NCBI GenBank assembly: GCA_044355525.1
Contig: JBIKXZ010000001.1
Span: 1-39,992, forward strand
Source of the DNA: Chthoniobacterales bacterium
GTDB taxonomy: Bacteria; Verrucomicrobiota; Verrucomicrobiia; Chthoniobacterales; JACTMZ01
Direction of reading: 5' to 3'
DNA: 39,992 bases
Under the pieces are notes generated by a model. It ran no database searches. It was not told the DNA's origin and saw nothing but the letters and a program-made list of their open reading frames with translations. The position numbers were made by a program, and so were the translations under genes. The first letter of the stretch is position 1; each line of letters opens with the position of its first letter. Positions 6,126-21,678 of this stretch are shown here, one piece after another.

Positions 6126-6794
6126 TCAAAGCAGAGATTCCAACTTTCGTAGACCCTCGGAAGCTCCTGCCGCAATAACCTTGAAACCGTCGACCTCCGG
6201 GGGCCGCGGATCGATGAGGAATCGGCGGCAGCCCGGCGGGGCGAAGAAGGCCAAACCGGCCGCCGGATACACCTGCAACGACGTTCCAACCACGATCAAG
6301 AGATCAGCCGCCGCGACCGCCGCCTCCGCTTGGGCCATGAGCGGCACTTCTTCCCCGAACCAGACGATATGCGGTCGCAGTTGCGATCCTTTTTCGCATC
6401 GGTCGCCTTCCTGCAATTCCCACTGCTGCAGCGGATAGATGAGATTCGGGTCGAGGGTCGATCGCGCCTTCATCAATTCGCCGTGAAGATGGATCACGCT
6501 CGTCGACCCGGCGCGCTCGTGCAGGTCGTCGACATTTTGCGTCACCACCGTGACGCGATAGGTCTTTTCCCATCCCGCGATGAGGCGATGACCCTCGTTC
6601 GGATCGGCGGAAAGCAGCGCCTTGCGACGCTCATTGTAAAAGCGGAGGACAAGTGCCCTGTCGCGATGCCACGCTTCGGGCGTGGCCACCTCTTCGACGC
6701 GGTGGTTCTCCCAAAGCCCGTTGTTGTCCCGGAAAGTCTTGAGTCCGCTCTCGGCACTCATCCCCGCCCCGCTCAAGACGACGACATGCTTCAT
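6126..6794 (-). CDS. cobB: Sir2-family NAD-dependent protein deacylase (short form lacking the 4-Cys zinc ribbon)
   Basis: MKHVVVLSGAGMSAESGLKTFRDNNGLW, QNVDDLHERAG, HLHGEL and VVGTSLQVYPAAG are sirtuin motifs. The true ATG is at 6794 (track ORF 6126..7076 is an upstream extension). It overlaps the upstream gene by 4 nt. Confidence 0.85.
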   Translation of the reverse strand: MKHVVVLSGAGMSAESGLKTFRDNNGLWENHRVEEVATPEAWHRDRALVLRFYNERRKALLSADPNEGHRLIAGWEKTYRVTVVTQNVDDLHERAGSTSVIHLHGELMKARSTLDPNLIYPLQQWELQEGDRCEKGSQLRPHIVWFGEEVPLMAQAEAAVAAADLLIVVGTSLQVYPAAGLAFFAPPGCRRFLIDPRPPEVDGFKVIAAGASEGLRKLESLL

Positions 6795-7507
6795 GGCGCC
6801 GGCGCCTGCAGCACCACCACTCCGAGTCGCCCGTCGGTGCGCCACAGATCCCCGCCCCCGTTGTGACCCTCGAGGTGCGGATGGAAGTCGGCGATGAAAA
6901 ATTCCCGCGCCGCCCAGCGCGCTTGCTCCAGCCCGCGCATAATGAGATCGCGCTCGGCATCGACATCGGGACCGATGTGATGCGTTACCTCGCCGGTGGT
7001 GTAACTCAGGCCGACCCGCTCGTCGAAGGACGCCGAACCGAACCACACCACTTTGCCTTGGTGCAAACGGTCCCACTTCCAGAAACGCACGTGATGCCGC
7101 CGTCGCGGACTGTTCCCGACCGGAAACTCGAAGGCCAGATCCTCTTTGCGTCCGAACAAATACAAATTGCTCACCGGCGCCTCGTCATCCGGACGCCGCA
7201 CCACCGAATCAACAACGATGCGCACGCTGGTGGCGAAGGTGATCGGATCCGCCGGAGACCATCCCGCTGCTGTCATCGCGCGGACCACCTGCTCCTCCAC
7301 GCCGAGCAGCGCGATATTCACCGGATCCCCGGGATGGCCATCCGGAGTTTCGGTCAGACGCGGCCCGGTCAGCAGCGCGTCCTCCCCGCGCTCGAGCTGG
7401 TGCCAAACGATCGGCGCCAGCAAATAAGCCAGCGCGGCCCAGATGGTCAATCCGAGCAAAATCCAATGCCAATAGCGGCGCAATTTGGTTGAAAGATCAG
7501 AGGTCAC
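6791..7507 (-). CDS. LssY-like C-terminal domain protein with an N-terminal transmembrane helix
   Basis: The TM helix is WHWILLGLTIWAALAYLLAPIVW. It is followed by DPVNIALLG...APVSNLYLFGRKEDLAFEFPVG...RHHVRFW...THHIGPDVDAERD, which I recall as the LssY_C pattern. GTG start at 7507. There is a 4-nt stop/start overlap with cobB. Confidence 0.6.
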   Translation of the reverse strand: MTSDLSTKLRRYWHWILLGLTIWAALAYLLAPIVWHQLERGEDALLTGPRLTETPDGHPGDPVNIALLGVEEQVVRAMTAAGWSPADPITFATSVRIVVDSVVRRPDDEAPVSNLYLFGRKEDLAFEFPVGNSPRRRHHVRFWKWDRLHQGKVVWFGSASFDERVGLSYTTGEVTHHIGPDVDAERDLIMRGLEQARWAAREFFIADFHPHLEGHNGGGDLWRTDGRLGVVVLQAPAP

Positions 7508-7812: not shown

Positions 7813-8766
7813 TCACCGCAATCGCCTCCCCTGCGCACTGAACTTCGCCTCCGGATCATCATCAGGCAAGGGCGCCAGATCGATCGTCAACGGAAAATGG
7901 TCCGAGTAAACGCGCCGCCACGCCTCCCGGTCGCGCATGCCCTGCTCGTTGTGCACAGCCAGCGAGCGCGCTTCGATCTCGTCAAATCCGGCCAGCGGCA
8001 GGATGTGGTCGATCTGACGGTTGAAATGCACGATCGAACGCTGGTTGCCGCGCGGAGAAGGAAAACGCGCGAACCCGTCCGAGGTCCACAGCGACGCCTC
8101 TCCCGCCCGCGCATCGTGGTTGAAGTCGCCCATCACCACAATGTCGCCGTCTTCATCCGGTGACTCCCGCAAACTTTCCAACCAAGCGCGCACCGCCACG
8201 ATTTCTTCGCGCCGCCGCGCCATGTCATCCGGCTCGCGCCCGGCTTTGAGATGCAGGCAAACCACCCGGAAATCCGGACCACCGTTGCGACAGCGGAAGG
8301 TAGCCGTCACGGGAATGCGATGAAACAACTGCTCGCGGCGCAATGATTCCAACTCACCCGCGCCAAGCATCTCGACGCGCGAATGGTCCCAGATGATGCC
8401 CGGGGCAATGCGCCCGTCCTGCCCGAGGTAGCCGCTGCGCCCGACGGCGAATTTCCAATTAGGCCCCAGCCGCCGGCAAAGATCCTGCAGCGGCTTCGGA
8501 CCATCGACCTCGCAAACCCCGAGCACCTGCACGTCGAGACCGCGGACAAACTCGGCGATTGCTTGCAGATTTTCCTCCGTGCGTGGCGGGTCGTTGCGGT
8601 TGCCGAAAAACTCGAGGTTCCACCATCCGAGGCGCAACGGACGAAGACCGTCCGGGCCGGCAACCAAGGGCGCAACCGGCGACCGCCCGGGCGCACGCTC
8701 ATGCCAGAGCAGCACGCCGGCCACCACGCCGAAAATCAGGAGGACCACCAAAAGCGGCTTGTTCAT
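7813..8766 (-). CDS. Endonuclease/exonuclease/phosphatase (EEP) family protein with an N-terminal membrane anchor or signal
   Basis: Motifs: LGWWNLEFFG, FRVVCLHLKAG, VVMGDFNHD, IDHILP and YSDHFPLTIDL. The N-terminus is MNKPLLVVLLIFGVVAGVLLW. The ATG at 8766 is preferred over the track start at 8874. Confidence 0.8.
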   Translation of the reverse strand: MNKPLLVVLLIFGVVAGVLLWHERAPGRSPVAPLVAGPDGLRPLRLGWWNLEFFGNRNDPPRTEENLQAIAEFVRGLDVQVLGVCEVDGPKPLQDLCRRLGPNWKFAVGRSGYLGQDGRIAPGIIWDHSRVEMLGAGELESLRREQLFHRIPVTATFRCRNGGPDFRVVCLHLKAGREPDDMARRREEIVAVRAWLESLRESPDEDGDIVVMGDFNHDARAGEASLWTSDGFARFPSPRGNQRSIVHFNRQIDHILPLAGFDEIEARSLAVHNEQGMRDREAWRRVYSDHFPLTIDLAPLPDDDPEAKFSAQGRRLR

Positions 8767-8877
8767 GCAAAATACAAGTCCAAGGCACCCAAGCGTCCCA
8801 TCCCGCCGGGCGCGGCACAATGCGCGATTGGATGCGCTCCTGCCCCAACTCGCAACTCGCCACCCATTCGGCACGCC

Positions 8878-8925
8878 TTTCAGCTTTTCAGCTTTCCAGC
8901 ATTTCCGCTTTTCCCCATTTTCCCA
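8878..8925 (+). repeat. Six tandem degenerate octamers (TTTCMRCW) ending 2 nt before the ATPase ATG
   Basis: The units are tttcagct tttcagct ttccagca tttccgct tttcccca ttttccca, followed by cc and ATG (8928). The tract is pyrimidine-rich and occupies the position where a Shine-Dalgarno sequence would normally sit. Confidence 0.7.
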
Positions 8926-8927
8926 CC

Positions 8928-11279
8928 ATGTCTCCCGACCTCTACGAAAAGCTCGGACAGTTTTATCTCGGACGCGAAGTCACCCCCGACGGAAAACCGA
9001 CCGACGACCTGGTTCTCTACGATTCGAGCAACCTGACGACCCACGGAGTCTGCGTCGGCATGACCGGAAGCGGCAAGACCGGGCTCTGCATCGCGCTGCT
9101 CGAGGAAGCCGCCATGGACGGCATCCCCGCGCTGATGATCGACCCGAAGGGCGACCTCGGGAATCTGCTCCTTACCTTCCCGCAAATGCGTGGCGAAGAC
9201 TTCGCCCCGTGGGTCAGCGAAGAAGACGCACGCAAAGCCGGCGTGACCACGGAAGAGTTTGGCGCGAATGAAGCGGAAAAATGGAAGGACGGCCTCGCGC
9301 AATGGGGACAGACTCCGGAGCGCATCGCCGCGCTCCGCGAAAAATGCGAGATCGCCATCTACACGCCCGGTAGCAATGCCGGCATCCCGCTCTCCATCCT
9401 GCGTTCTTTCGAGGCACCGCCCGCCGACATCGCCGGTGATGCCGAACTCCTCGCCGAGCGCGTGCAGAGCACAACGTCCGGTCTGCTCGGACTTCTCGGC
9501 ATCGACGCCGACCCGCTGCAAAGCCGCGAGTTCAGCCTGCTCTCCGCCATCCTGCAGCAAGCGTGGAAAAACGGGCAATCCCCCGACCTTCCCGCGCTCA
9601 TCGCCGCGGTGCAGGACCCGCCTTTCGATAAAATCGGCGTCCTCTCGCTCGACGAATTCTTCCCCGCCCGCCAGCGCCGCACCCTTGTCATGGCGCTGAA
9701 CAACCTCCTCGCTTCGCCCGGTTTCGCCACGTGGCGCGAAGGCGAACCGCTCGACATCGCCCGCCTGCTGCACACGCCCGAGGGCAAGCCGCGCCTCGCT
9801 GTCTTGAGCATCGCCCACCTCTCCGATGCGGAGCGTATGTTTTTCGTCACCACCTTGCTCGAAGAAGTCATCGCCTGGATGCGCCGCCAACCCGGCACGC
9901 CGTCATTGCGCGCACTGCTCTACATGGACGAAATCTTCGGATACCTCCCGCCCATCGCCAACCCGCCGTCCAAAGGCCCGTTGCTCCTGCTCCTTAAACA
10001 AGCTCGCGCCTTCGGCCTCGGCATTCTCGTCGCCACGCAAAACCCGGCCGACCTCGATTACAAAGCGCTGGCCAACTGCGGCACGTGGTTCATTGGACGC
10101 CTCCAAACCGACCGCGATAAACAGCGCGTCCTCGAAGGCCTGGAGAGCGCCAGCGCCGGACGCGGTGCGGACCGCACCAAGCTCAACGAACTCCTCAATG
10201 CCCTGGGCAAGCGCGTGTTCCTCCTCAACAGCGTGCACCTCGGAGAACCGAAACTTTTTACCACGCGTTGGACCATGAGCTATCTGCGCGGACCTCTCAC
10301 CCGCGAGCAGATCCGCGTCTTGATGGATGCCGCCGAGCGTCCCGCCCCCGCGCCGGCGCCGCTCGCGCAGGCACCGGCCGAACCGGCGGCCGCTGCTTCA
10401 CCCGAACCGCCCGCCGCCGAACCCGGCGTCTGGCAACTTGTCGCCGACGGCACCGGTCAGGTTCTCCACCCCTCGCTCGGACTCCGCATCCGCGGCACCT
10501 TCGCCTCGCGCCGTCCTTCGGCCGAGGCGCCCGCCGAAGTGCTGGTCAGCGTTCCCTTCGGACCGGACGGCAAACCGTCATGGAAACACGCCAGCGTGGC
10601 CGGTGCCGCGCACCATTCGCATCCGCCTGTTGCGCACAGCGGGCCCGTCTTCGCGCCGGTCAATCCCGCAGCGCTGCAAGCCGCCCAGAATCAGACGTGG
10701 CAGATGGAAGCCCGCACCCAACTCGGCGAAAGCCTCGAGGTGCCCGTCCTGCGCGAAGGAAAAATCACCGGCGCCCCCTTCGAGACCGACGCCGAATTCC
10801 GCCTGCGCCTCGAACAAGCCGCCCGCGAGGAACGCGATGAAACGGTGCAGGTCATCCGACGCAAATACGAAACCAAGATGCGCACCGCCGCGGACAAAGT
10901 GAACCGCGCCCGCGAGGCCGTGGCGCGGCAGAAATCGCAGGCCCGCTCCGCGCAGGTGCAAACCGCGATCAGCGTCGGAACCTCTGTCCTCGGCGCCCTC
11001 TTCGGCAAGAAAGCCTCCGGACTCGGACACATCACCCGCGCCGGCACGGCCGCCCGCGGCGCCACGCGCGCGATGAAAGAATCCTCCGACGTCGGCACCG
11101 CCGAGGAAAAACTGGCCGACGCCGAAGCCGCAGCCTCCGAATTGGAAGCCGAAGTCGAAACCAAGATCGCCGAGATCCCCTCGCCCACCGCCGTGGTTTC
11201 GCATCCCGAAACCCTCCGCCTCAAACTCCTCCCCGCTACCCTGCGCATCGAGTCGGCCGGGATCCTCTGGACTGCCTAG
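8928..11279 (+). CDS. HerA/FtsK-superfamily P-loop ATPase (DUF853/YjgR-like architecture) with an Ala/Pro linker and a coiled-coil C-terminal region
   Basis: Motifs: THGVCVGMTGSGKTGLCIALLEE (Walker A), IDPKGDL, ALLYMDEIFGYLPP (Walker B-like) and VATQNPADLDYKAL. The C-terminus has a PAPAPAP linker and a charged helical tail. The ATG at 8928 (MSPDLYEKLGQFYLGRE) is preferred; the track ORF start at 8559 would overlap the divergent EEP gene. Confidence 0.7.
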   Translation: MSPDLYEKLGQFYLGREVTPDGKPTDDLVLYDSSNLTTHGVCVGMTGSGKTGLCIALLEEAAMDGIPALMIDPKGDLGNLLLTFPQMRGEDFAPWVSEEDARKAGVTTEEFGANEAEKWKDGLAQWGQTPERIAALREKCEIAIYTPGSNAGIPLSILRSFEAPPADIAGDAELLAERVQSTTSGLLGLLGIDADPLQSREFSLLSAILQQAWKNGQSPDLPALIAAVQDPPFDKIGVLSLDEFFPARQRRTLVMALNNLLASPGFATWREGEPLDIARLLHTPEGKPRLAVLSIAHLSDAERMFFVTTLLEEVIAWMRRQPGTPSLRALLYMDEIFGYLPPIANPPSKGPLLLLLKQARAFGLGILVATQNPADLDYKALANCGTWFIGRLQTDRDKQRVLEGLESASAGRGADRTKLNELLNALGKRVFLLNSVHLGEPKLFTTRWTMSYLRGPLTREQIRVLMDAAERPAPAPAPLAQAPAEPAAAASPEPPAAEPGVWQLVADGTGQVLHPSLGLRIRGTFASRRPSAEAPAEVLVSVPFGPDGKPSWKHASVAGAAHHSHPPVAHSGPVFAPVNPAALQAAQNQTWQMEARTQLGESLEVPVLREGKITGAPFETDAEFRLRLEQAAREERDETVQVIRRKYETKMRTAADKVNRAREAVARQKSQARSAQVQTAISVGTSVLGALFGKKASGLGHITRAGTAARGATRAMKESSDVGTAEEKLADAEAAASELEAEVETKIAEIPSPTAVVSHPETLRLKLLPATLRIESAGILWTA

Positions 11280-11328: not shown

Positions 11329-14300
11329 TCACTGCTGCTGCACTTCCAAACGCAGGAACTTTCGCTGCTCTCCGGGCAACACCGGAGCGGTGGCACGTCG
11401 CATTTCGTAATCACCGTGATCACTGACAAACTCGTCGATCACGCCATTGGCCAACCAATTGGCGTCCGTTAGTGCGTTTTTCCACTTCACTCCACCGCTC
11501 ACACCCTGCGTGTTTTTGCTGCGGCGATACTCCAGGCTGACTTCGCCTGGCGTCACATCGCCCGGTGTCGTTACGTCCACGGGCATAGCAACCGCCGAAG
11601 ACCCATCCGCCGGGCTCAGACCCATGAAATATTCGACAACGTTGGCCAATCCATCGCCGTCCGGATCGGCCCCCGGTGAAGGATCCGTCAAGTTCGGATA
11701 GCTTCCGATCCAGCTTCCGAAATCCGGCGTAGGGGCCTGCACCGTGAGCACGAAGCTGACACTGGCCGTGCGGGCACCGTCGCTCACCGTGACGAATATA
11801 GTCGCTTGGCCGCTTTGTCCGGCCGCCGGCGTGATCGTCATGGTCCGATTGTTCCCCGAGCCGCCGAACACGATATTGGCATCGGGAACGAGTGAAGTAT
11901 TCCGGCTCGAGGCCGTGAGAATGAGCAACTCCGCAGCAGTATCATCATCGGAGACGGTCACCGAAATGGGGCCGGCAACAGTGTCCTGCGCAATACTAAG
12001 GTGGGTGATATCGCTTATCGTCGGCGTGGCCGCCGGCGGAAGCGCAACCTGCACGACCACATCATCGATAAAGGCGCGTTTCGCCGAAGTTGACAAGGTG
12101 ACAGTGGAGCCGTTGGAAGCCCCCGCAAAACTGACCGTTTTCGCCTCGAAAGATCCAGACATCGTGCTCGTGTAGGACACCTGCTGCGTGACGAGACCAG
12201 GCACGCTCACCAGAATATTTCCTTCGTTTGTCGACCAACCTTTGACTTTGAAGGAGACCGTGAAGTTCCCGTTGCCACCTCCCAGACCAAGTGGCCGGCT
12301 TGTCATGGAGCCGGTGGCCGAACCGGTTCCCAATCTGACGGCGCCGCCAGCCTGATAGACGCGCGAGAGATCGGTCGAAGGGAAATTCGTGTTGCCGCCC
12401 CAAGCCGAACTGGAACCGGATGTGTTCGTGCTGTTCCCGGCAGTGATGGAGGAAAACTCCTCGCGGAAAATCTCGCTACCACCGCCAGCCCCCACAGAGA
12501 TGGTCAGCTGCTCGGAATCACTGCCGAAGGAATTTGCCGCACTGATGTTGACATTGAACGTGCCAGCCGCGGCGGGCACACCGGAAATCAGCCCGGACGA
12601 TGCATTCACGGACAAGCCCGACGGCAGACCACTTGCCGCGAAGGCGCTCGGCGAGTTATTAGCGGTGATCTGGTAGCTGAACTGCTGGCCTACCACAGCA
12701 CTCGCAGTCAAAAGACTGGTGATAACCGGAGGCAGCGCCGGAATATCATAGTCCGCCTCGAAATCATCCATCAGCATGCGCTCCCCGGTGCTGCGGAACA
12801 GCTCGATGAAAACCTGCTGACCGGCGGCGGGAGCGATCTCGACCGCGCCGGACTCGTAACGCTTGTAGACTTTGTCGCCGTCGAACCAGTTGCCGTTGGT
12901 CGAAAGCAGTGTCGTGTAGGTGGCGCCGCTGTTGGTGCTGTAGCGGATCTGGAAGTTGGGGGAAGGACTGTTGTCCCACCGGGCCAGGCTCATGGCGAAA
13001 CGCGTGATCGTGTTGGCCGTGACATAGCGCACATAGGTGTTGGCCACCGTATCGCTGCCCAAACGCCAAGCGTTGCCCCCGAGCGCCTCGGTTGTCTCCC
13101 GCAGCGCACTGTTCGCAGTGAAGTAGTCGCCGGAGGGCGCGTCCGCGTTGTTGGTGAATGTGCGCACTCCATAACCCGTGGTTCCCCCGCCCCACGAGGC
13201 GCTGGCGTCAAAGTTCTCGTAGTAGGTGGCGAAGCTCGGGGGTTCGTTCACCGCGACGATGATGTCCTCGCTCGTTGTTCCTGCGACGTCGGCCGCGCGG
13301 AAGGTGACATTGTACGAACCAAGCGGCGAGGCGTTGGTCCAGCGGAAGAAACCCGAGCCGTTGGTCGAAGTGAACGTCGCCCCCGCCGGGAGATTGACCA
13401 CCGACAATGTGATCGGATCATCGCCCACCGGATCGGAGGCATTGACCGGAAATTCCAGCGTCGTGCCGACAATGACCGATTGATTGCCGATCGGCGAAAG
13501 CACGGGCGGTTGGTTACTTTGCACCGTGATCGGGACCGTGATGGTGTTGGTCCCGTCCTTGTCCGAAGCGGAGAAGCTCGGATTGTATGTTCCGACGGGC
13601 TGGGCGGCGCCCCAAGTGAAGTTGCCGGATCCGGCCGTGGAACTGAAATTGGCTCCCGGCGGCAAACCGGACGCCGTCAACGTGATCGGATCGCCGTCAA
13701 CCGGATCCGTGGCCGTGACGGCGAAGTCCAGCGCGCGGCCGACCACCACGGACTTCGGTGCGATGCCATTGAAAACGGGCGGTGTGTTTTCGGCACAGCA
13801 GACCGGTTCGCTCGTCACGATCTCCAGCGACCAACCGCCGGATATGGTCCCGACATCCTCGGCGGCCGCATCGGCCACGTAGAGCGACCACAGACCATTG
13901 GCTTGAGCACCCTTGAACTCCGACAATGAACCGACGTAAGGACCAGCCGGAGCGGGTGCCGGCATCGTTCCAACGGCCCCGCTCGGCAGGTAAGTTCCCG
14001 AGACAACCGTTCCGCCGATTGTGCCGCTGGCCGAGTCGTCAAAGACCAACGTGGCATTCACCGCATCGGTGCCGCCACCAGCCGAACCCATCAGAGCCAC
14101 TTTGCGTCCGTCCGGCGACACCAGCACGATGTCGATATCCTCCGGATAGGTGTGCGACAATCCGGCAACCGTGACCTTGACCGCGGACACCGGTCCGGTG
14201 ACACCGGAAACATTGATGCTCGAGGGATACGGCGTGGACGTGGTGTTGTCGCGGATGGTGATGGCCGTGGAATTCGACCGCGTCGAGGTGGAAGTATTGA

Positions 14301-16632
14301 ATGTGCCCAGATTGAATTCATGCGGGATCGTGGCGACGACTTCGCCGCCGTCGCGGATTTGCAACACCGCGGAAATCGTCACGCCGCATTCGCCCTCGGC
14401 CACCAGTTCGTAATTGCGCGTCTGCGAAACACCGGGAGCAAGCACGCCGTAGCTTTGCGGACCGGTTGTAATGGCCGTGACACCGTTTTGGTCGAGCAAA
14501 GTAGCCGTGACTTCGGAAGATCCCAATGTGCCGGTGTTGCGCAGGGTGAAAGCGACAGTGACAATTTCGCCCGGGTCCGGCACCCCGTTCCCCGCACCGC
14601 AGGTCTCCGCAGCCAGCGCGGCACCGGTCGAGACAATGCGGGGCGCATCGGTTTCGGCACCGCCAGTCAAAACAACGGAGAACGCCTGTGCAGCAGTAGT
14701 CAGACTGCCATCGAGCGAGACCGTGATGGTGTAGGAACCGACCTGGGTAGGACCGGCCAGATAAACCTGCTCCACATTGTCCACGTTGTTCTTACCGCGG
14801 GTGGCCGGCAGAGCCATGGAGGCGTCCGTCCACGTGCCGACAAAGGGCATGACAAAAGGCTGATAGACCGTAGTGCCATCGGGCGCGGTGATTTTCAGGT
14901 CAAGATTATGGCGGAGATTCGGTGTGCGGCTGTCCGCGGCGGTTTGCGCAACACCGGCCGGATCGGTCCAGCAAAGCGTGGCACGGATCGGGCTGACGCC
15001 ATCCCACTTGAACGTGTAGGTCTGCGGCGCGGCTGCGGTGGCAACGGAACCTTCGATCAGTTTAGGAGTCGCGGGGAATTGCTTGTGCGCGAGGATGACA
15101 TCGGCAGCCGCCTTGGTATTGATCAACCCCCAACCGAATTTGTAATCGGGCCCGGCTGTCCCGAGGTCGTCAGCGGTATGAATGAGCAGCGCTTTGAGCA
15201 AACTGGCACGCATCAACTGACCGGAAAACTCCCGGCGGTAAAGTTGAGCGAGCAGCGCCGCGGATCCGGAAGCCGAGGGCGTCGCCATGCTGGTTCCGCT
15301 GTAAATGTCATAAGCGGTATCGCCCGTGCTGATCGGCGAATTCAAGCTGACGCCGTTGGCCACCACGTCCGGCTTGATGCGCCCGTCGTCGCAGGGGCCC
15401 CAGCTGGAGAAACCGGACATCGTTCCCGCAGCGAGTGAACGCACGCCGCCGCTCACCGCATCATTGATCGCACCGACCGTTAGGATGTTTTTCGCCAGTC
15501 CGTTGAAGGTGATGGACTGATACCCGCCTTTGGCCGTGAGTGAATCCTGCGAATTACCCGCGGCCCAGAACGGCATGTAGTAAGGCAGGTTGAAAACCAA
15601 GGCATCGGTGTCGCGCGCTTGCACCTCATAGCGCCCCATGTCAGCGGTGGAGTCATTGTAACCGTAGGAGTGGTTGGAGATCGGTATCTTCGAGGCATCG
15701 GCGGTGGCCGTCGCCGCACCGGAAGAGGTCATTTCGCTGTAGTCGCTGTTCCAATCCCACGAATCGATCGCCACGGATGGTGCCATTCCCTTGGCATTGG
15801 CGGTCACACCGGTGGCGCCGATTGTTCCGGCCACATGGGTGGCGTGATCGTCAACCGCCGCGGTTGAATTGCGATTCACCACCCGCGTGGTGCTGAACTC
15901 GCGATGCGTGTTCCGCACCGAACCCGCATCCCACACGCCGACCTTTACCGTGCTACCGTTCAGGTTGTAAGGAGCCGGATAAACCAAATTGGCGGCGCTG
16001 GAAATGGCCGCGTTGGCGTTCAGTGTCGTGCGGTAAAGCGGCCCCTCCGATCGGATGTCGTGGAGGATGGAAACCTTGTGGCCCGGCCCCTCGATGCGCA
16101 CCGGGATGCCGAGTTCCTTGGCGCGAGCAAGCACCGCGCGGTAGCGGGTTTGCTCCGCGGCAGCCATTTCCGCAGCCACTTGCACGCGTTGCCCGGGAAC
16201 GGCGAGGTCTTTGCCGGCCAGAATTTCCGGAATGGACCTATAAACAGGCGAGCCCTTCGGTCCGCGCCCGGCCGCACGAGAGCGGGCCGGAGGCGAAGAT
16301 GTCGCAGACAAACCTTGCCCATTTCCACTCGGCAAACTCACCGCGGTGTCATGCGCATTTGGCGACTGCGCATGGACTGCCGGCTGCGCCCCGGTCGAGT
16401 TGGCTGTTGAAGCCGCTCCGTCCAAGGATGCAGGAGCGGCAGCGCTCGACGTTGAAGAACTCTGCGGGTTCGCGGGAGCATCTGTGGCCGAGGTCGCGCC
16501 CGGAGAGGAAGCAGGGCTTTGCCTTCCTCCACCTGCCGGGGATGAGGCGGAAGTTCCGAGGAGCACAAAGACCGCGAAGCCAAGGATCAACAAGCAAGCC
16601 AAAGCGAGAAAAGGAGCTTGTTTGCCTTTCAT
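11329..16632 (-). CDS. Giant secreted subtilisin-like (S8) serine protease with a P-domain, repeated Ig-like and carbohydrate-binding-like modules and a shared C-terminal module
   Basis: The signal peptide is MKGKQAPFLALACLLILGFAVFVLLG (ATG at 16632). The catalytic triad motifs are VGVWDAGSV (Asp), DDHATHVAGTIG (His) and SGTSMATPSASGSAALL (Ser). The P-domain reads HTYPEDIDIVLVSPDGRKV...NGLWSLYVADAAAEDVGTISGGWSLEI. There are several He_PIG/cadherin-like repeats. The C-terminus reads ADPDGDGLANVVEYFMGLSP...FLRLEVQQQ. Confidence 0.85.
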   Translation of the reverse strand: MKGKQAPFLALACLLILGFAVFVLLGTSASSPAGGGRQSPASSPGATSATDAPANPQSSSTSSAAAPASLDGAASTANSTGAQPAVHAQSPNAHDTAVSLPSGNGQGLSATSSPPARSRAAGRGPKGSPVYRSIPEILAGKDLAVPGQRVQVAAEMAAAEQTRYRAVLARAKELGIPVRIEGPGHKVSILHDIRSEGPLYRTTLNANAAISSAANLVYPAPYNLNGSTVKVGVWDAGSVRNTHREFSTTRVVNRNSTAAVDDHATHVAGTIGATGVTANAKGMAPSVAIDSWDWNSDYSEMTSSGAATATADASKIPISNHSYGYNDSTADMGRYEVQARDTDALVFNLPYYMPFWAAGNSQDSLTAKGGYQSITFNGLAKNILTVGAINDAVSGGVRSLAAGTMSGFSSWGPCDDGRIKPDVVANGVSLNSPISTGDTAYDIYSGTSMATPSASGSAALLAQLYRREFSGQLMRASLLKALLIHTADDLGTAGPDYKFGWGLINTKAAADVILAHKQFPATPKLIEGSVATAAAPQTYTFKWDGVSPIRATLCWTDPAGVAQTAADSRTPNLRHNLDLKITAPDGTTVYQPFVMPFVGTWTDASMALPATRGKNNVDNVEQVYLAGPTQVGSYTITVSLDGSLTTAAQAFSVVLTGGAETDAPRIVSTGAALAAETCGAGNGVPDPGEIVTVAFTLRNTGTLGSSEVTATLLDQNGVTAITTGPQSYGVLAPGVSQTRNYELVAEGECGVTISAVLQIRDGGEVVATIPHEFNLGTFNTSTSTRSNSTAITIRDNTTSTPYPSSINVSGVTGPVSAVKVTVAGLSHTYPEDIDIVLVSPDGRKVALMGSAGGGTDAVNATLVFDDSASGTIGGTVVSGTYLPSGAVGTMPAPAPAGPYVGSLSEFKGAQANGLWSLYVADAAAEDVGTISGGWSLEIVTSEPVCCAENTPPVFNGIAPKSVVVGRALDFAVTATDPVDGDPITLTASGLPPGANFSSTAGSGNFTWGAAQPVGTYNPSFSASDKDGTNTITVPITVQSNQPPVLSPIGNQSVIVGTTLEFPVNASDPVGDDPITLSVVNLPAGATFTSTNGSGFFRWTNASPLGSYNVTFRAADVAGTTSEDIIVAVNEPPSFATYYENFDASASWGGGTTGYGVRTFTNNADAPSGDYFTANSALRETTEALGGNAWRLGSDTVANTYVRYVTANTITRFAMSLARWDNSPSPNFQIRYSTNSGATYTTLLSTNGNWFDGDKVYKRYESGAVEIAPAAGQQVFIELFRSTGERMLMDDFEADYDIPALPPVITSLLTASAVVGQQFSYQITANNSPSAFAASGLPSGLSVNASSGLISGVPAAAGTFNVNISAANSFGSDSEQLTISVGAGGGSEIFREEFSSITAGNSTNTSGSSSAWGGNTNFPSTDLSRVYQAGGAVRLGTGSATGSMTSRPLGLGGGNGNFTVSFKVKGWSTNEGNILVSVPGLVTQQVSYTSTMSGSFEAKTVSFAGASNGSTVTLSTSAKRAFIDDVVVQVALPPAATPTISDITHLSIAQDTVAGPISVTVSDDDTAAELLILTASSRNTSLVPDANIVFGGSGNNRTMTITPAAGQSGQATIFVTVSDGARTASVSFVLTVQAPTPDFGSWIGSYPNLTDPSPGADPDGDGLANVVEYFMGLSPADGSSAVAMPVDVTTPGDVTPGEVSLEYRRSKNTQGVSGGVKWKNALTDANWLANGVIDEFVSDHGDYEMRRATAPVLPGEQRKFLRLEVQQQ
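11516..11678 (-). repeat. Copy A of a 163-nt near-identical tract shared by the two protease genes
   Basis: Hand alignment with 17024..17186 gives 156/163 identical positions, including a 68-nt perfect run. The flanking C-terminal coding sequence is clearly more diverged. Confidence 0.85.
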
Positions 16633-16675
16633 AGCTGCGCTGGAGCAAAAGGGAAAGTTGCTCCGAACAATACAA

Positions 16676-16743
16676 AACATAGCCCGAGCAAGGCGTTCGA
16701 CAACCAGGAAGTAGTAGTCGGATGTGACAAGGCTGTCACAGGA
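16676..16743 (-). promoter_or_regulatory. Candidate promoter and upstream operator of protease 1
   Basis: On the - strand: TCCTGTGACAGCCTTGTCACA (16743-16723), then 19 nt, TTGTCG (-35-like, 16703-16698), 16 nt, and TATGTT (-10-like, 16681-16676). The leader also holds a 7-bp stem ggagcaa/ttgctcc (16642-16664). The same layout occurs upstream of protease 2. Confidence 0.45.
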
Positions 16744-16836
16744 CAAAAAACACGCGCAATTCTCTCTCCGAACCCACCGAGTCCATGAAGTCGGCGAAGC
16801 CGCCTGTGCGCGAGGGATGCGCCGGCAGGACCGCGG

Positions 16837-19800
16837 TTACTGCTGTTGCACTTCCAGTCGCAGGAACTTGCGCGTCTCGCCCGGCAAAACCGGCGCCGAG
16901 GCCCGTCGCGTTTCGTAATCGCCATGGTCGGTCACCAAAACGTCGGTAACCGCCTCACCGGACCATGCGGGGTCGGACAGATTGGTCTTCCATTTCATTG
17001 CCCCGACCACGCCCTGTGTTGATTTGCTGCGGCGATATTCCATGCTGACTTCGCCCGGCGTCACATCGCCCGGTGTCGTTACGTCCACAGGCATAGCAAC
17101 CGCCGAAGACCCATCCGCCGGGCTCAGACCCATGAAATATTCGACAACGTTGGCCAAGCCATCGCCGTCCGGATCTGCGCCCGGTGCAGGATCAGGAATA
17201 CCGGGGTAGTTGCCTAGCCATTCGGAGAATGTCGGGGTGGAGCCGCTCGTAATCGTGAGAACAAAGGACTGCGTGGCGGTTTCGCCCAGCGAATTGTAGC
17301 ACTCGAGCACAATGTTGTAGGTGCCCGCTTGCGTCGCCGTTCCACTAAGCAGACCCGTTGCCGAATTGAGCGCCAGACCGGGAGGCATTTGGTGTCCGGC
17401 ACCCGTGCGGTAGAGGTTTCCCTGGCCGAAGGTTCCGGCGCGCAAGTTGGCCACGAACGCACTGTTCGCCGGGTTATTCCCCTTGCCCGGCGTCACGCCA
17501 TCGAAGGACGGCTCGTCGTCGGTGACTGTCAACTGCACTGCGCCATTCGTGTAGCCGGTGGCCGTCGCGGTGATCGTCACTATTTTGGTGCCGTCGGACA
17601 AAGCGTTATTCACCGCAGAAATGGAGAACGAAGCACTGGTCTGCCCCGCCGGAATCGTGAGGCTGGCTGGCACGGAGGCAGCGTTGGTGTTCGACGATGC
17701 GAGTGCCACGATGAGGTCGGTCGGCGCCGGAGAGGAGACATTCACAGAGCCGACGGAAGCATTGGGACCCGAGTTCTCGCTAAAGACAGCGGGAGCTGCA
17801 CTTACCGAGAGCGCTTGCGCTCCTGACCCTGCAGCCAAAACAACTTTGTCCAACTGCATGTTGCCGGCGGTTTTGGTCTGGTAGAGAAAACGAACATAAC
17901 GAGACGTCGAGGGCACAGTGTCGGTGTAAGGCGTATCGGTGTTGTTCTTGTCGATGATGGTGCGGTGGGTTGCGAAATTCACTCCATCCGCCGAATTTTG
18001 TACGAGGAACGTGCCCTGCGTGGAGGTTCCAGAGCCGGGATTGCCTCGCAGATTATAGGTCAGCGCACCGGGTGCTGCAGAAAATTGAATAGTGAGACTG
18101 TCACCCGTCGTGTCGAACTTGGCGGAACTGCCGCCTGTGTCGCCTCCCAAGTCAGTAGTGTAAGGACTTCCCAGGCCGCTCCCCGTGAAGCCCAACGGCA
18201 AGGTCCCCCACGGACCCCCGAATGCCAGGGGTAGGCTTGCCACCTTGGTCGAGGCACGCACACCTCGCGCCGTTGAGGCTGTGGTTACGAACCAGTTGGC
18301 GCGATCCGCGATGCCATCTTCCGTGTCTCCAATGTAATACGCAGCGCGTCCCGACGTCACCGAGCCAATGTTGGGCGTCGCCGTGGAATTGTTACCGTAG
18401 GCAACTTGGGCAACCGTGAAGTTGTCTGCGTCGTTGACGAAAATCGCGTCACCACTGTTGCCCAGAGCCGGCCAAAAAGTCGTTTGGTCGAAATAAGTCG
18501 CATTGAGCGAGGAAATAACCATGCGGCCGTCATCGAGGGGATTCGTATCTTCGGCGGGTACCAACGGGTCTTTGCTGGCCCCGCTGTAGATGACAATAAC
18601 CGTTCCCGCCGGGATGTTGTCCCAGATCGGATCGTCCAAAAAGAGCAGGTAGTTGCCGCTCGCGTCCTCGATGTCATAAAAGGCCAGACTGGTATCCTGC
18701 AAGGTCAGCAACTCGATCCACTCTCCGCCATTCGAGCCTTGGCTGAATTCGTTGATGATCACCGGCCGCGTGAAGGTCGTGCTCACCGCGGGCACATAAA
18801 TCGCAGGTTGGAACGAGTAGGATGAACCGAGAGTTCCCGCGCTGACCGGACGATTCCCGACGCTGACCGGCGCCGTGAAGAACGGCTCGCCCGTGGAATT
18901 GCCGTCGCTGGCCCGGACCGCGCAACGCCACAGCTTCGCCGCGTTGGCGGGACTTGCCGCGAGCATCGAGGAGGCGCCTCCGGCATCGGTCCACGCCGTT
19001 CCATTCAGACTCGACTGCCACTGGTAGGACAGGGTTATCGGTGAGTTCTCGGGATCGCTGGCCACCACACCGCCGACCTGGAGCGGCGCATCACTGTAGG
19101 CATTGACGGACGGCGTGACCTGCGCGGCAGCAACAGTCGGAGCTTGGTTTCGCACCTCGACCGTCACCGAAGCACTGGTCGAACTCGCCCCCTCGCTGTC
19201 GGTCGCGCGCGCGGCAACGGTGTAAGTGCCGATGGCGGGAAGCCAGACGAAGTTGTAAGGCGCCGTGGTGTCGGTATTCACGACTGTGCCATTGGCAAGA
19301 AACTGCACGCTGGCCACGGAACCCGTGCCGCCCGCTGCTGTGCTGTCGGTGGCGGTGGCAGCCAGATCAACCGAAGCACCCGGCGAAACAACAAGGTCGC
19401 CCGACGGTGATGTCAGGGTGACGACCGGAGGCGGATTCACCGGGGCAGTCGAGGATCCGTAGACCTCCATGGTGGCGGAGGTGAGGGTTCCGCCGGTGGC
19501 ATTGCCCGTGCCGCTTTCGTCAGTGATTTTCAGACGCCATGTCCCGGCCGCGTTTTCGCCCCAGTTCCGCACGGTCATGAAAGTCCAGTTGGGAAAATTG
19601 TCGCCCGAGTCGGCGTGAACCTCGGCCAGTCGGCTGACCGTCCCGGAGGGAGATGTCAGCGTGATCTTCAGATTTCCTCGGGCCGTGTGGTTGATGTTGA
19701 CCGTGACGGTCACATGCTCGACCCGCAAATTGTCCTGCGCGGGGACGACGAGTTCGCGCGTGATGCCCGTCGTATTCAGGTTGGGAATGGCCACGCTGAG

Positions 19801-21678
19801 ACCGGTCTGGGCCACGGTGCGTTTGAGTTGTGCCGAGAGATTTGTCCATCCGGTCGCGAGGGTGACCGCTGCGGACGCATCGACGAGGCCGGCACCGAAT
19901 TTGTGGTTGTGGTTGATGTTGGCCGGTGCGACCAGCGTTTTCCAATCGCTGTCGGAAGGATTCACCTTCTTGGCCGAGCGCATAAGGATCTCCTGAACAT
20001 CGCGCCATCCGAGGTTCGGGTTGGCCTCGAGCATCAGCGCAACAACGCCGGCGGCCGTCGGAGTGGCCGAGGATGTTCCGCCGAAGTCGCTCTCGTAATC
20101 GCCGGCCACATAACCATCTGCTCCGGTCCGGTCCGTCGTCGTCTTGCCAAGCGCCGGGGCATCTCCGCTCGAGGGAGATGTAATAACGAGGTTGGCCCCC
20201 GGTTCACTATACCATGCTTGACGCGACTGGCTGTCGAACGCGCCGACCGCGATGGTGTAAATGGAGTTGGCATAACCGTCGTAATTGGAGTTGTCGTTGG
20301 CATCGAGGCCGTTGCCCCCAGCCCACATAAAGATCGTGCCTTTGTTGCCGCGGCCAGTTTCTGCCGCATTCCGCAAGGCCGCTTTGGTCAGCGGACCCGG
20401 CGCCTTGAGAAGCATCCCGGTGTCGTTTGGTCCCCAGCTGTTGCTTTTGATCTGGATCAGTTGCGGGAGATAATTCATCGCATCCGCCTCCTGCTGATCG
20501 CTGGTTCCTGCAGCAATCAAACGCATGCCGACAATAGTGGCCTCGGGAGCAGAGCCGGACACACCAATGGTGTTGTTGCCGCGTGCCGCCGCGTCCCCCG
20601 CGCACGCCGTGCCGTGATCATCCCCCGCCCCCGGATTCGGATCGTTCGGGGTGGAGTCGTTCCAGTCGTAGTCGTTAGTCGTATCGATGTTTCCCACGAA
20701 GTCCGGATGCGACGTCTGCACTCCGTCATCGACGATGCCTATGCGTATACCGCGCCCGCGCCGGCCGGCTCCGGCCGTGGGGTAGGCCCAGACATTTTCT
20801 ATGTTGAGATCCGTGCCGGCGACCGCGCCCGCTTGGTTATTGAACTTGAGGTGCCATTGCTGGTTGATCAGCGCGTCATTGGGCATGGCTTTCTTGGCCT
20901 GTTGCCGCGCCAACTGAGCTTCGGCAAGCAGGATGCCGGGTTGGCCGGACAGTTTTTCGGCCGCACGCAGCGAAGCCAATCCGGCACCCGTTCGCAGAAC
21001 CGCGTAGCCGGGCGCATAGTCCGGCAACTCGTAAGAAGATGCGCCGGCGAGTCTCGCCACCACGGAAGGATCGGTGCTCTGCAAAAGCTGCACTGTGACA
21101 AGAGGCGTGACGACGCGCCGCGTGAATTCGTTCCGCTCGACCCCCTGTTCGTAAAGCACGGCTTGGGCAGGTTGACCGCCGGCCGAAGAAGCAAGAACGA
21201 TTTGGTCAAGTTGCTCGGGACTGGCTGCATCGACGCCAACCACGCGACCTTTTCCATCCGGATCGGTGACCCAGATTTCGTCAAGCGCGAGAACAAAATT
21301 CCGCGGATGGCCGGCATCGACAACGGCGTAATCGGCTTCGGTTTGCTTGAACTGCTGGGCCGGTCCCGCTGCGGGCGCTGTTCCCTTCTTTTTCGGCGAA
21401 CCCGAGCCGCCGACACTCCGACGATTACCTGATGCGGTGGAGGCATCCACAGCAGCGCCTGAAGCAGAAACAATGTTGCCTGCATCGAGACCTGATGAAC
21501 CTTTCGTGGTGGCGTTGGCAGCACGACTGTCGGACGACGCACCCGCCGATGGTTGCGATGTCGCCTCGGCTCGGTCGCCGCTCGCGCCCGGTTGCGGGAG
21601 CGAGAGCGTCGCGATGGCGAACAAGGTGACCAGCCCGAAGATGGCAATCGTCGCGGTGAGAAACTTCCTGTTTTTCAT
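16837..21678 (-). CDS. Giant secreted kexin/furin-like (S8B) serine protease with a P-domain, Ig-like modules, a lamin-tail-like domain, a Calx-beta-like domain and the shared C-terminal module
   Basis: The signal peptide is MKNRKFLTATIAIFGLVTLFAIATL. Protease motifs: NDALINQQWHLKFNN, IGIVDDGVQTSHPDF (Asp), GDDHGTACAGDAAA (His), NSWGPND and GGTSSATPTAAGVVALM (Ser). The P-domain reads VTVNINHTARGNLKITLTSPSGT...AGTWRLKITDESG. The LTD-like segment is VIINEFSQGSNGGEWIELLT. The C-terminus is nearly identical to that of protease 1. Confidence 0.85.
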   Translation of the reverse strand: MKNRKFLTATIAIFGLVTLFAIATLSLPQPGASGDRAEATSQPSAGASSDSRAANATTKGSSGLDAGNIVSASGAAVDASTASGNRRSVGGSGSPKKKGTAPAAGPAQQFKQTEADYAVVDAGHPRNFVLALDEIWVTDPDGKGRVVGVDAASPEQLDQIVLASSAGGQPAQAVLYEQGVERNEFTRRVVTPLVTVQLLQSTDPSVVARLAGASSYELPDYAPGYAVLRTGAGLASLRAAEKLSGQPGILLAEAQLARQQAKKAMPNDALINQQWHLKFNNQAGAVAGTDLNIENVWAYPTAGAGRRGRGIRIGIVDDGVQTSHPDFVGNIDTTNDYDWNDSTPNDPNPGAGDDHGTACAGDAAARGNNTIGVSGSAPEATIVGMRLIAAGTSDQQEADAMNYLPQLIQIKSNSWGPNDTGMLLKAPGPLTKAALRNAAETGRGNKGTIFMWAGGNGLDANDNSNYDGYANSIYTIAVGAFDSQSRQAWYSEPGANLVITSPSSGDAPALGKTTTDRTGADGYVAGDYESDFGGTSSATPTAAGVVALMLEANPNLGWRDVQEILMRSAKKVNPSDSDWKTLVAPANINHNHKFGAGLVDASAAVTLATGWTNLSAQLKRTVAQTGLSVAIPNLNTTGITRELVVPAQDNLRVEHVTVTVNINHTARGNLKITLTSPSGTVSRLAEVHADSGDNFPNWTFMTVRNWGENAAGTWRLKITDESGTGNATGGTLTSATMEVYGSSTAPVNPPPVVTLTSPSGDLVVSPGASVDLAATATDSTAAGGTGSVASVQFLANGTVVNTDTTAPYNFVWLPAIGTYTVAARATDSEGASSTSASVTVEVRNQAPTVAAAQVTPSVNAYSDAPLQVGGVVASDPENSPITLSYQWQSSLNGTAWTDAGGASSMLAASPANAAKLWRCAVRASDGNSTGEPFFTAPVSVGNRPVSAGTLGSSYSFQPAIYVPAVSTTFTRPVIINEFSQGSNGGEWIELLTLQDTSLAFYDIEDASGNYLLFLDDPIWDNIPAGTVIVIYSGASKDPLVPAEDTNPLDDGRMVISSLNATYFDQTTFWPALGNSGDAIFVNDADNFTVAQVAYGNNSTATPNIGSVTSGRAAYYIGDTEDGIADRANWFVTTASTARGVRASTKVASLPLAFGGPWGTLPLGFTGSGLGSPYTTDLGGDTGGSSAKFDTTGDSLTIQFSAAPGALTYNLRGNPGSGTSTQGTFLVQNSADGVNFATHRTIIDKNNTDTPYTDTVPSTSRYVRFLYQTKTAGNMQLDKVVLAAGSGAQALSVSAAPAVFSENSGPNASVGSVNVSSPAPTDLIVALASSNTNAASVPASLTIPAGQTSASFSISAVNNALSDGTKIVTITATATGYTNGAVQLTVTDDEPSFDGVTPGKGNNPANSAFVANLRAGTFGQGNLYRTGAGHQMPPGLALNSATGLLSGTATQAGTYNIVLECYNSLGETATQSFVLTITSGSTPTFSEWLGNYPGIPDPAPGADPDGDGLANVVEYFMGLSPADGSSAVAMPVDVTTPGDVTPGEVSMEYRRSKSTQGVVGAMKWKTNLSDPAWSGEAVTDVLVTDHGDYETRRASAPVLPGETRKFLRLEVQQQ
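17024..17186 (-). repeat. Copy B of the 163-nt near-identical tract shared by the two protease genes
   Basis: See 11516..11678. It encodes PGADPDGDGLANVVEYFMGLSPADGSSAVAMPVDVTTPGDVTPGEVS, which is identical in both proteins. Confidence 0.85.

Follow-up and report, generated by a model that had tools for sequence, protein, structure and literature searches.

An uncatalogued C-terminal domain shared by two tandem subtilases recurs at the ends of secreted proteins across Verrucomicrobiota

Verrucomicrobiota abound as degraders of polymers in soil, freshwater, oceans, and guts, and the way in which they deploy their large secreted enzymes is poorly understood. The window analyzed here, a stretch of 39,992 nucleotides (nt) from a Chthoniobacterales bacterium (contig JBIKXZ010000001.1, positions 1 to 39,992; all coordinates below refer to it), encodes two giant neighboring proteases of peptidase family S8, which we call A and B and which end in what appears to be the same module of about 125 residues. 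Why should two otherwise different enzymes share a C-terminus? The first-pass annotation of this window had suggested that the tail serves in sorting, anchoring, or docking. We found that the terminal module is an unannotated and widespread domain family, which ends hundreds of secreted proteases, lipases, and adhesin-like proteins of Verrucomicrobiota; that its 125 to 130 or so residues form an autonomous extracellular domain with no catalytic function; and that it behaves like a cassette at the 3' end, shuffled from one secreted-protein gene to another.

Open reading frame (ORF) analysis places the two genes head to tail and in the same direction on the minus strand. Gene A (11329-16632) encodes an S8A subtilase of 1767 aa, as judged from its ORF, translation, Pfam matches, closest relative in the PDB, and catalytic motifs; gene B (16837-21678) encodes a furin/kexin-like S8B subtilase of 1613 aa, as judged from its ORF, translation, Pfam matches, furin/kexin alignment, and motifs. 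The initial description of two adjacent, co-directional giant S8 genes of these lengths therefore holds. The open frame of A extends from 11329 to 16746, where it reaches a TTG; we took the ATG at 16632 as the start, because it yields a typical signal peptide-like segment. A strongly hydrophobic N-terminal segment is present in both proteins. Scans for promoters and terminators gave no useful signal.

The terminal module of A spans aa 1637-1767 (11332-11724, minus strand), with a putative calcium loop at 11632-11667 and a last strand, FLRLEV, at 11341-11358. In B it spans aa 1483-1613 (16840-17232, minus strand), with the loop DPDGDGLANVVE at 17140-17175 and FLRLEV at 16849-16866, followed by three residues and then the stop codon. 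Both tails read W-x-G-x-YP, then ADPDGDGLANVVEYFMGLSP, and then RKFLRLEVQQQ. In a BLASTP comparison, the alignment of A and B is confined to the final ~175 residues (66% identity), where an E value of 3.7e-66 puts the likeness far beyond chance; their catalytic domains give no BLASTP match at E < 1e-3. The translations and BLASTP thus agree with the earlier observation that the same tail of about 125 residues, with its W-x-G-x-YP start, calcium loop, and RKFLRLEVQQQ end, sits on otherwise different subtilases. The tails had also been called identical, which they are not: the two modules share 78% protein identity over 128 aa and 80 to 82% DNA identity over 300 to 357 nt, and only a core of 47 aa is identical.

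This core is encoded by a tract of 141 nt (11536-11676 in A and 17044-17184 in B, both on the minus strand) that is 96.5% identical between the two copies and includes an insertion of five residues (five codons) absent from most relatives; outside the tract, the module DNA of A and B is 68% identical. A near-identical tract within flanks of 68% argues for gene conversion between the tandem paralogues, and from the nucleotide comparison the event looks recent; the module has thereby been homogenized in part between the two genes, and the tract shows exchange of the 3' cassette. The beta-sandwich half of the module still tracks orthology: here A resembles its orthologue P0020 (76%) more than it resembles B (70%).

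Neither of the window's two modules matched a Pfam or NCBIfam model, and we found no description of the module in the literature. When 12 and then 62 diverse members were searched, no Pfam or NCBIfam model for the module emerged, and the matches were weak and at the level of motifs only (TSP3_bac in 3/62, DUF3999 in 4/62, and Amuc_1099_fam in 11/62); a few members give weak F5/8-type-C or DUF3999 matches. Sequence searches of the PDB with two module profiles returned EF-hand or unrelated noise only, and no solved structure was matched. A word-indexed homologue search with the module yielded few and short fragments. A profile built from 12 sequences and run against 1.84 billion cluster representatives matched 11,598 of them at E ≤ 1e-3, 1,542 at E ≤ 1e-10, and 42 at E ≤ 1e-30. 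The first-pass annotation had named two outcomes that would speak against its proposal, namely, that the tail is a known and functionally defined tag or that it is confined to the two paralogues; we looked for both and found neither.

We fetched 165 proteins, 107 of which carry the module in a total of 113 complete copies. Nearly all of these copies are terminal: 103 of the 113 end no more than 7 residues from the C-terminus (76 exactly at it), with a conserved closing motif, F[LM]RLx[VL], followed by 2 or 3 residues. An S8 domain was found in 24 of the 42 carriers scanned with Pfam. Reprolysin-like, CotH, Exo_endo_phos, PATR, LTD, MBG, fn3, and He_PIG domains are also found in this set, and some of the carriers are adhesin-like. 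The module sits, usually in last place, on many unrelated proteins that have export signals at the N-terminus. By a strict motif, peptidases make up 19/53 carriers; the enrichment of peptidases may stem from the seeding of the profile with protease tails. Adjacent pairs of module-bearing genes, such as A and B, recur at other loci (L004, L014, L029, L030, L046, L047, and L051), and at L051 a PATR/PKD protein with three modules is followed by a gene for a GDSL lipase that also ends in the module. Tandem arrays of 2 to 6 modules occur in proteins without enzyme domains; tandem or internal copies were found in at least six proteins (P0030, P0031, P0041, P0064, P0106, and P0089), and some of the arrays (among P0030, P0031, P0041, P0064, and P0106) have a different domain on their C-terminal side.

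Two kinds of array protein were looked at individually. P0041 (L052, 5425-9120; L053, 220-3915) and P0030 have 3 to 6 tandem modules and no recognizable enzyme domain, and after the array comes a conserved C-terminal region of a different type, ending in ...YQP; the P0041 gene overlaps by 4 nt with a downstream gene for a 521-aa protein that has no Pfam match. P0106, a small secreted protein of 397 aa, consists of an N-terminal region of ~140 aa and then two modules; the sequence pattern of the N-terminal region is loosely reminiscent of a cohesin-like beta-sandwich, a likeness that Pfam does not support.

Carriage of the module is optional even among near relatives of A. Within 117 close homologues of its catalytic region (60 to 69% identity), 49 have the module (48 of them in complete and terminal form) and 68 lack it. 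That the latter exchange the module for a known sorting signal was considered and rejected: those that seem complete end either in a lamin-tail domain (LTD) with a basic tail, ...PRNSATPVTLRKKQLLPRxGR, or in a P-domain, and the others are truncated. The combination of LTD and conserved short basic tail is shared by many of the module-less S8A homologues (P0177-P0233), some of which are listed as "Spartobacteria" in NCBI records, and the basic tail that follows the LTD may be an alternative C-terminal device. Two further S8A homologues that are negative with the module hidden Markov model, P0174 and P0274, have similar last strands (...SFLRISVQKQ and ...NW...RFYRTGVKLP, respectively), which hints at a wider superfamily of C-terminal sandwiches that lack the calcium loop and end in [FY]xR[LIV]xV.

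All of the 50 module loci recovered from species-representative genomes with one narrow peptide pattern belong to Verrucomicrobiota, including Chthoniobacterales, Akkermansiaceae, Verrucomicrobiaceae, strain IMCC26134, Moanabacter, and Pedosphaera/Limisphaerales. The earlier idea that such ends recur in secreted proteins of the Planctomycetes-Verrucomicrobia-Chlamydiae (PVC) group is accordingly upheld for Verrucomicrobiota by the profile matches and the 50 loci; because a single narrow pattern was used, the range may extend to other PVC phyla.

To see how the module is built, we modeled it with AlphaFold2 using an alignment of 62 sequences. The prediction is of one compact and confident domain (pLDDT, 91.6; pTM, 0.84; all five models at pLDDT of 90.5 or above). 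It comprises a helix at module residues 2-7 (F..W), a loop at 20-31 (DPDGDGLANVVE) that runs into a helix at 28-34, a variable linker of low confidence at 41-60, and the five strands of an immunoglobulin (Ig)-like sandwich at 61-69, 75-82, 96-102, 106-114, and 123-130. The N-terminal 40 residues reach a pLDDT of 95 to 97, which predicts that they pack against the sandwich instead of forming a free linker. The loop has the canonical 12-residue pattern of an EF-hand, D-x-D-x-D-G-x-x-N-x-x-E (D1, D3, D5, G6, N9, and E12), and the second helix has the motif NxxEYxxGxxP; an alignment of the loop with the EF-hands of calcineurin B is nonsignificant and serves as an illustration. We predict from this motif that the loop binds Ca2+ in the manner of EF-hand/TSP3-like loops. 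Nearly invariant across the 62 members are W5, D20, D22, D24, G25, N28, E31, P38, W90, A111, F123, R125, and L126; a basic strand, [YF][RK][RK]xK, is broadly conserved, and the last strand, F-x-R-L-x-V, closes the protein. Foldseek searches of the PDB with two models returned generic Ig/fibronectin type III-like sandwiches only (best TM-score, 0.43; none at E < 1e-3), and no type IX secretion system (T9SS) C-terminal domain (CTD) or dockerin was among the top 50 matches.

The closest parallel in overall design is the CTD of the T9SS of Bacteroidota (Por_Secre_tail, TIGR04183), which likewise has ~80 to 130 aa, an Ig-like beta-sandwich, a distribution within one phylum, and a place at the extreme C-terminus of many unrelated hydrolases and adhesins exported by Sec. 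The module differs from it in having an extra N-terminal element of calcium loop and helix and in occurring as tandem and internal copies, which T9SS CTDs are not known to do. Neither the window's modules nor the 62 diverse members matched Por_Secre_tail/TIGR04183 at E ≤ 1. Verrucomicrobiota are not known to have a T9SS, and none of its machinery (PorK/L/M/N, SprA, and PorU/V) was seen within the window. Sorting signals of the transmembrane type (PEP-CTERM, LPXTG, and GlyGly-CTERM) were also considered and rejected, as the ...RKFLRLEVQQQ end has no hydrophobic segment and no NCBIfam match. At locus L051 (1-5464; GCA_964467415.1), neighboring PATR proteins give weak or faint matches to PEP-CTERM, the exosortase signal; the module and PEP-CTERM sorting may coexist in this organism.

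Other resemblances concern parts of the module. In type I dockerins, too, a calcium loop leads into a helix (F-hand logic), loop position 9 is Asn, and position 12 is acidic; dockerins usually close the secreted enzymes that carry them and are sometimes duplicated. The present module has one calcium loop instead of two, fused to a beta-sandwich that dockerins lack. No Pfam dockerin match was obtained for module members, and no cohesin-like partner turned up, with no genome-scale search for partners having been made. The DxDxDGxxNxxE...G..P motif of the module's first half resembles the bacterial TSP3 repeat (PF18884), a Ca-binding repeat of the DxDxDGxxDxxE type. About 25 further high scorers in the profile search match only profile positions ~6-47, repeatedly; the three of these that were scanned with Pfam are TSP3_bac repeat proteins, so that this part of the profile does match genuine TSP3_bac proteins. 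Conversely, the window's modules have no TSP3_bac match, and those of the 3/62 members are weak (best E, 5.4e-4). The module differs from TSP3 repeats in being a single copy instead of an array, in having Asn at loop position 9 and EY after the loop, and in placing the loop inside a larger folded domain. PPC and P-domain modules are, like the sandwich, small beta-sandwich domains on the C-terminal side of secreted bacterial proteases; they show no sequence match to the module, which in addition occurs on many non-peptidases and coexists with a genuine P-domain in A and in B.

A final resemblance is to the Amuc_1099 family (NCBIfam NF042425), which 11/62 modules match weakly through the calcium-loop motif; these matches cover 26 to 38 residues at profile positions 111-152 of 321 and score 14 to 18 bits against a cutoff of 50. 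The window's own modules have no NF042425 match, and membership of the module in this family was rejected, the resemblance being at the level of the motif and far below the 50-bit cutoff. A calcium loop of the DPDGDGxSNLxEYxxGTxP type (module residues ~13-52) seemingly occurs also in the Amuc_1099 family. Amuc_1099 is a Verrucomicrobiota protein of a type IV pilus (T4P)-like surface system, encoded in the Akkermansia pilus-like MUL2 locus (PMC13174399), and is called uncharacterized in the literature.

The enzymes that carry the module in the window are both ordinary members of known families, S8A and S8B. B is, by its motifs and alignments, a genuine kexin/furin-type S8B enzyme. Its Peptidase_S8 catalytic domain (aa 308-580; 19939-20757, minus strand; Pfam E, 7.8e-45) has intact motifs, IVDDG (Asp, aa 315), DDHGTACAG (His, aa 353), SNSWGP (oxyanion Asn, aa 413), and GGTSSATP (Ser, aa 534), together with QWHL; a proprotein-convertase P-domain (aa 653-728; 19495-19722, minus strand; Pfam PF01483, E of 3.5e-25) is placed immediately C-terminal of it and lies inside the furin alignment. 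With a query of 460 residues covering both domains, residues 6-460 align with furin 20-464 (E, 1.6e-79), and kexin is matched at E 3e-76. A dibasic KK lies 13 residues upstream of QWHL, orthologues have KR or KK there, and this suggests autoprocessing of the prodomain after paired basic residues. B begins with a hydrophobic segment, either a signal or an anchor, and a low-complexity linker; a prodomain that ends in ...ARQQAKK precedes the catalytic domain and P-domain, after which come Big_7, He_PIG, and finally the terminal module.

A is an S8A subtilase on the evidence of its Peptidase_S8 catalytic domain (aa 227-502; 15127-15954, minus strand; Pfam E, 2.5e-37), its intact motifs (VWDAG, DDHATHVAG, NHSYG, and SGTSMATP), and its nearest solved relative, the S8A subtilase SubHal (E, 5.6e-23). 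A P_proprotein-type domain (aa 817-937; 13822-14184, minus strand) follows ~300 aa downstream of the catalytic domain; its Pfam match (PF01483; E, 1.8e-8) is weaker than that of B yet above threshold, at 34.8 bits against a gathering score of 21. In A, a signal peptide-like segment and a low-complexity linker precede the catalytic domain; the distal P-domain is followed by Big_9, then by three He_PIG domains, and last by the terminal module. The motifs, Pfam matches, and alignments to solved relatives therefore support the earlier assignments of B as a kexin/furin-like enzyme with a P-domain and of A as an S8A-like enzyme with a P-domain further downstream. Of the labels that had been given to the middle regions, He_PIG is confirmed by Pfam; the lamin-tail, Calx-beta, and carbohydrate-binding module (CBM) labels find no Pfam match in A or B at E ≤ 0.01, and LTD is commonly present, according to Pfam, in homologous module carriers.

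What might such a domain do? We tentatively favor a role as a Ca2+-stabilized docking or retention domain that would hold mature enzymes at a component of the cell surface or matrix. The proteases would be exported by Sec, and the N-terminal anchor or prodomain would then be removed, in B probably at the KK 13 residues before QWHL; once matured, the enzyme would stay docked through its calcium-stabilized C-terminal domain to some component of the cell surface or matrix, perhaps an anionic polymer (envelope or exopolysaccharide) or perhaps a protein receptor. Dockerins, SLH domains, and surface-binding CBMs follow a similar logic. Tandem arrays are typical of avidity-type binding domains, and we prefer docking or retention because tandem copies and optional presence together are typical of binding and docking modules; the tandem arrays and the close S8A homologues without the module also weaken the case for an obligatory export or translocation tag. 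The sorting, anchoring, or docking role first proposed for the tail has thus lost ground in its strictest form, that of an export tag, and for what is left of it calcium binding, the docking role, the ligand, and processing at KK are inferred. Several points weigh against docking. A translocation or attachment signal would account just as well for the strong bias toward the extreme C-terminus, and a pro-domain specific to proteases would likewise agree with the enrichment of peptidases. The analysis turned up no ligand, receptor, or partner gene, and in the 50 loci no neighbor is kept across carrier families. The fold matches are only generic and Ig-like (TM-score of 0.43 or less), so that the structure points to no function. 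Calcium binding is predicted from a sequence motif, and the restriction to Verrucomicrobiota comes from a scan with one narrow pattern.

That the tail reflects nothing more than a recent local duplication of two paralogues, with no general role, would fit the 141-nt tract, which is almost identical between the genes; this explanation is nonetheless refuted, since the modules are only 68% identical in DNA outside the tract and the same domain ends hundreds of unrelated proteins across many Verrucomicrobiota lineages. The extreme C-terminal position of 91% of the complete copies, with a fixed last strand and a tail of 2 or 3 residues, the many unrelated passengers, and the confinement of all recovered loci to one phylum would suit a cargo tag like the T9SS CTD, read by an outer-membrane translocation or attachment machinery specific to Verrucomicrobiota and possibly involving a secretin like those of type II secretion systems or T4P; the size and predicted Ig-like sandwich are broadly like those of T9SS CTDs, and a secretin/pseudopilin/PilT cluster lies 5 kb off in the window. 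We consider such a tag unlikely, given the proteins with tandem and internal copies listed above and the close homologues of the same S8A enzyme without the module; moreover, no machinery gene is conserved beside carriers, four unrelated genes lie between the proteases and the secretin cluster, which recurs in a single close syntenic relative, and neither sequence similarity nor specific structural similarity to T9SS CTDs was found. Somewhat less likely still is a bolder version, in which the module would be the cargo or attachment tag of an unrecognized pathway specific to Verrucomicrobiota. This pathway, a functional counterpart of the T9SS CTD system that uses recognition machinery of its own, would bring Sec-exported hydrolases and adhesins through or onto the outer membrane, and the tandem-array proteins would be its scaffolds or decoys.

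The module could instead target the enzyme to its substrate, as a CBM-like binder of an environmental polymer (a glycan, glycoprotein, or proteinaceous matrix) that brings the hydrolase to what it degrades instead of holding it at the producing cell. Carriage mostly by hydrolases (peptidases, a lipase, and a nuclease-like protein), the tandem copies, the invariant Trp and basic strand of the beta-sandwich, the presence of CBM21 among the weak fold matches, and the weak F5/8-type-C or DUF3999 matches of a few members would all agree with this. CBMs, however, normally show no strict C-terminal preference, one and the same module is found on enzymes with unrelated substrates (protein, lipid, and nucleic acid), no CBM family matches in sequence, and the fold matches are nonspecific (TM-score of ~0.4); we regard substrate targeting as doubtful. 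It is quite improbable that the module is a C-terminal pro-domain of the PPC type that would aid folding, stability, or latency during export and be cut off later. In its favor, secreted proteases carry PPC domains as small beta-sandwiches at their C-termini, peptidases account for more than half of the carriers scanned (19/53 by the strict motif), and the predicted linker inside the module is variable and of low confidence; on the other hand, the module is also found on non-peptidases and in enzyme-free tandem arrays, Pfam reports no PPC (PF04151) match in module members, and the alignment has no conserved cleavage motif at the module boundary.

Uncharacterized C-terminal domains of this kind are not rare. 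A profile for this one would annotate thousands of C-termini now called "hypothetical," would help to delimit the exported or surface-displayed proteome of the phylum, and would provide a handle for direct tests of cargo retention or sorting. Should dedicated recognition machinery exist, the module would belong to a new sorting system; even in the absence of such machinery, it adds a new family of extracellular domains whose structure is predicted with confidence.

The secretin cluster, which had been put forward as an obvious candidate partner of the module, lies on the minus strand at the start of the window. It is T2SS/T4P-like and comprises a GspD/PilQ-like secretin with a weak Amuc_1098_fam match (3357-5972), an unusually large pseudopilin-like protein of 819 aa with a GspG-like N-methyl N-terminus and Fn3_assoc, CHB_HEX_C, and DUF7305 domains (839-3298), and a PilT-like ATPase of which the window edge leaves only a fragment (1-830). 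The cluster is present 5 kb away, as had been noted; the partner role found no support. SIR2, LssY_C, and Exo_endo_phos genes and an opposite-strand HerA-like gene separate it from gene A, and a secretin cluster near carriers was found only in L001, a closely syntenic relative. All-versus-all clustering of ORFs from the 50 loci revealed no neighbors conserved across carrier groups, only within orthologous syntenic groups, and no recurring neighbor was seen around divergent carriers on three further contigs. There is no evidence for a functional link between the proteases and the secretin cluster.

Between the cluster and gene A, a SIR2-family gene (6126-7076, minus strand) and a gene for a HerA-like P-loop ATPase (8559-11279, plus strand) lie 1.5 kb apart on opposite strands, with the LssY_C and Exo_endo_phos genes between them. 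SIR2 with HerA is a known anti-phage pairing. The HerA_antiphage match is weak (33.8 bits against a cutoff of 800), and the arrangement and scores do not establish an anti-phage system. The HerA-like, Exo_endo_phos, and LssY_C genes are syntenic in L001 and in a second locus, L002. The window is nearest to Chthoniobacter and to metagenome-assembled genomes labeled "Verrucomicrobiae"; compared with L001 and L002, with which it shares local gene order, it shows 97% identity in malate synthase and 90 to 93% in the HerA-like protein.

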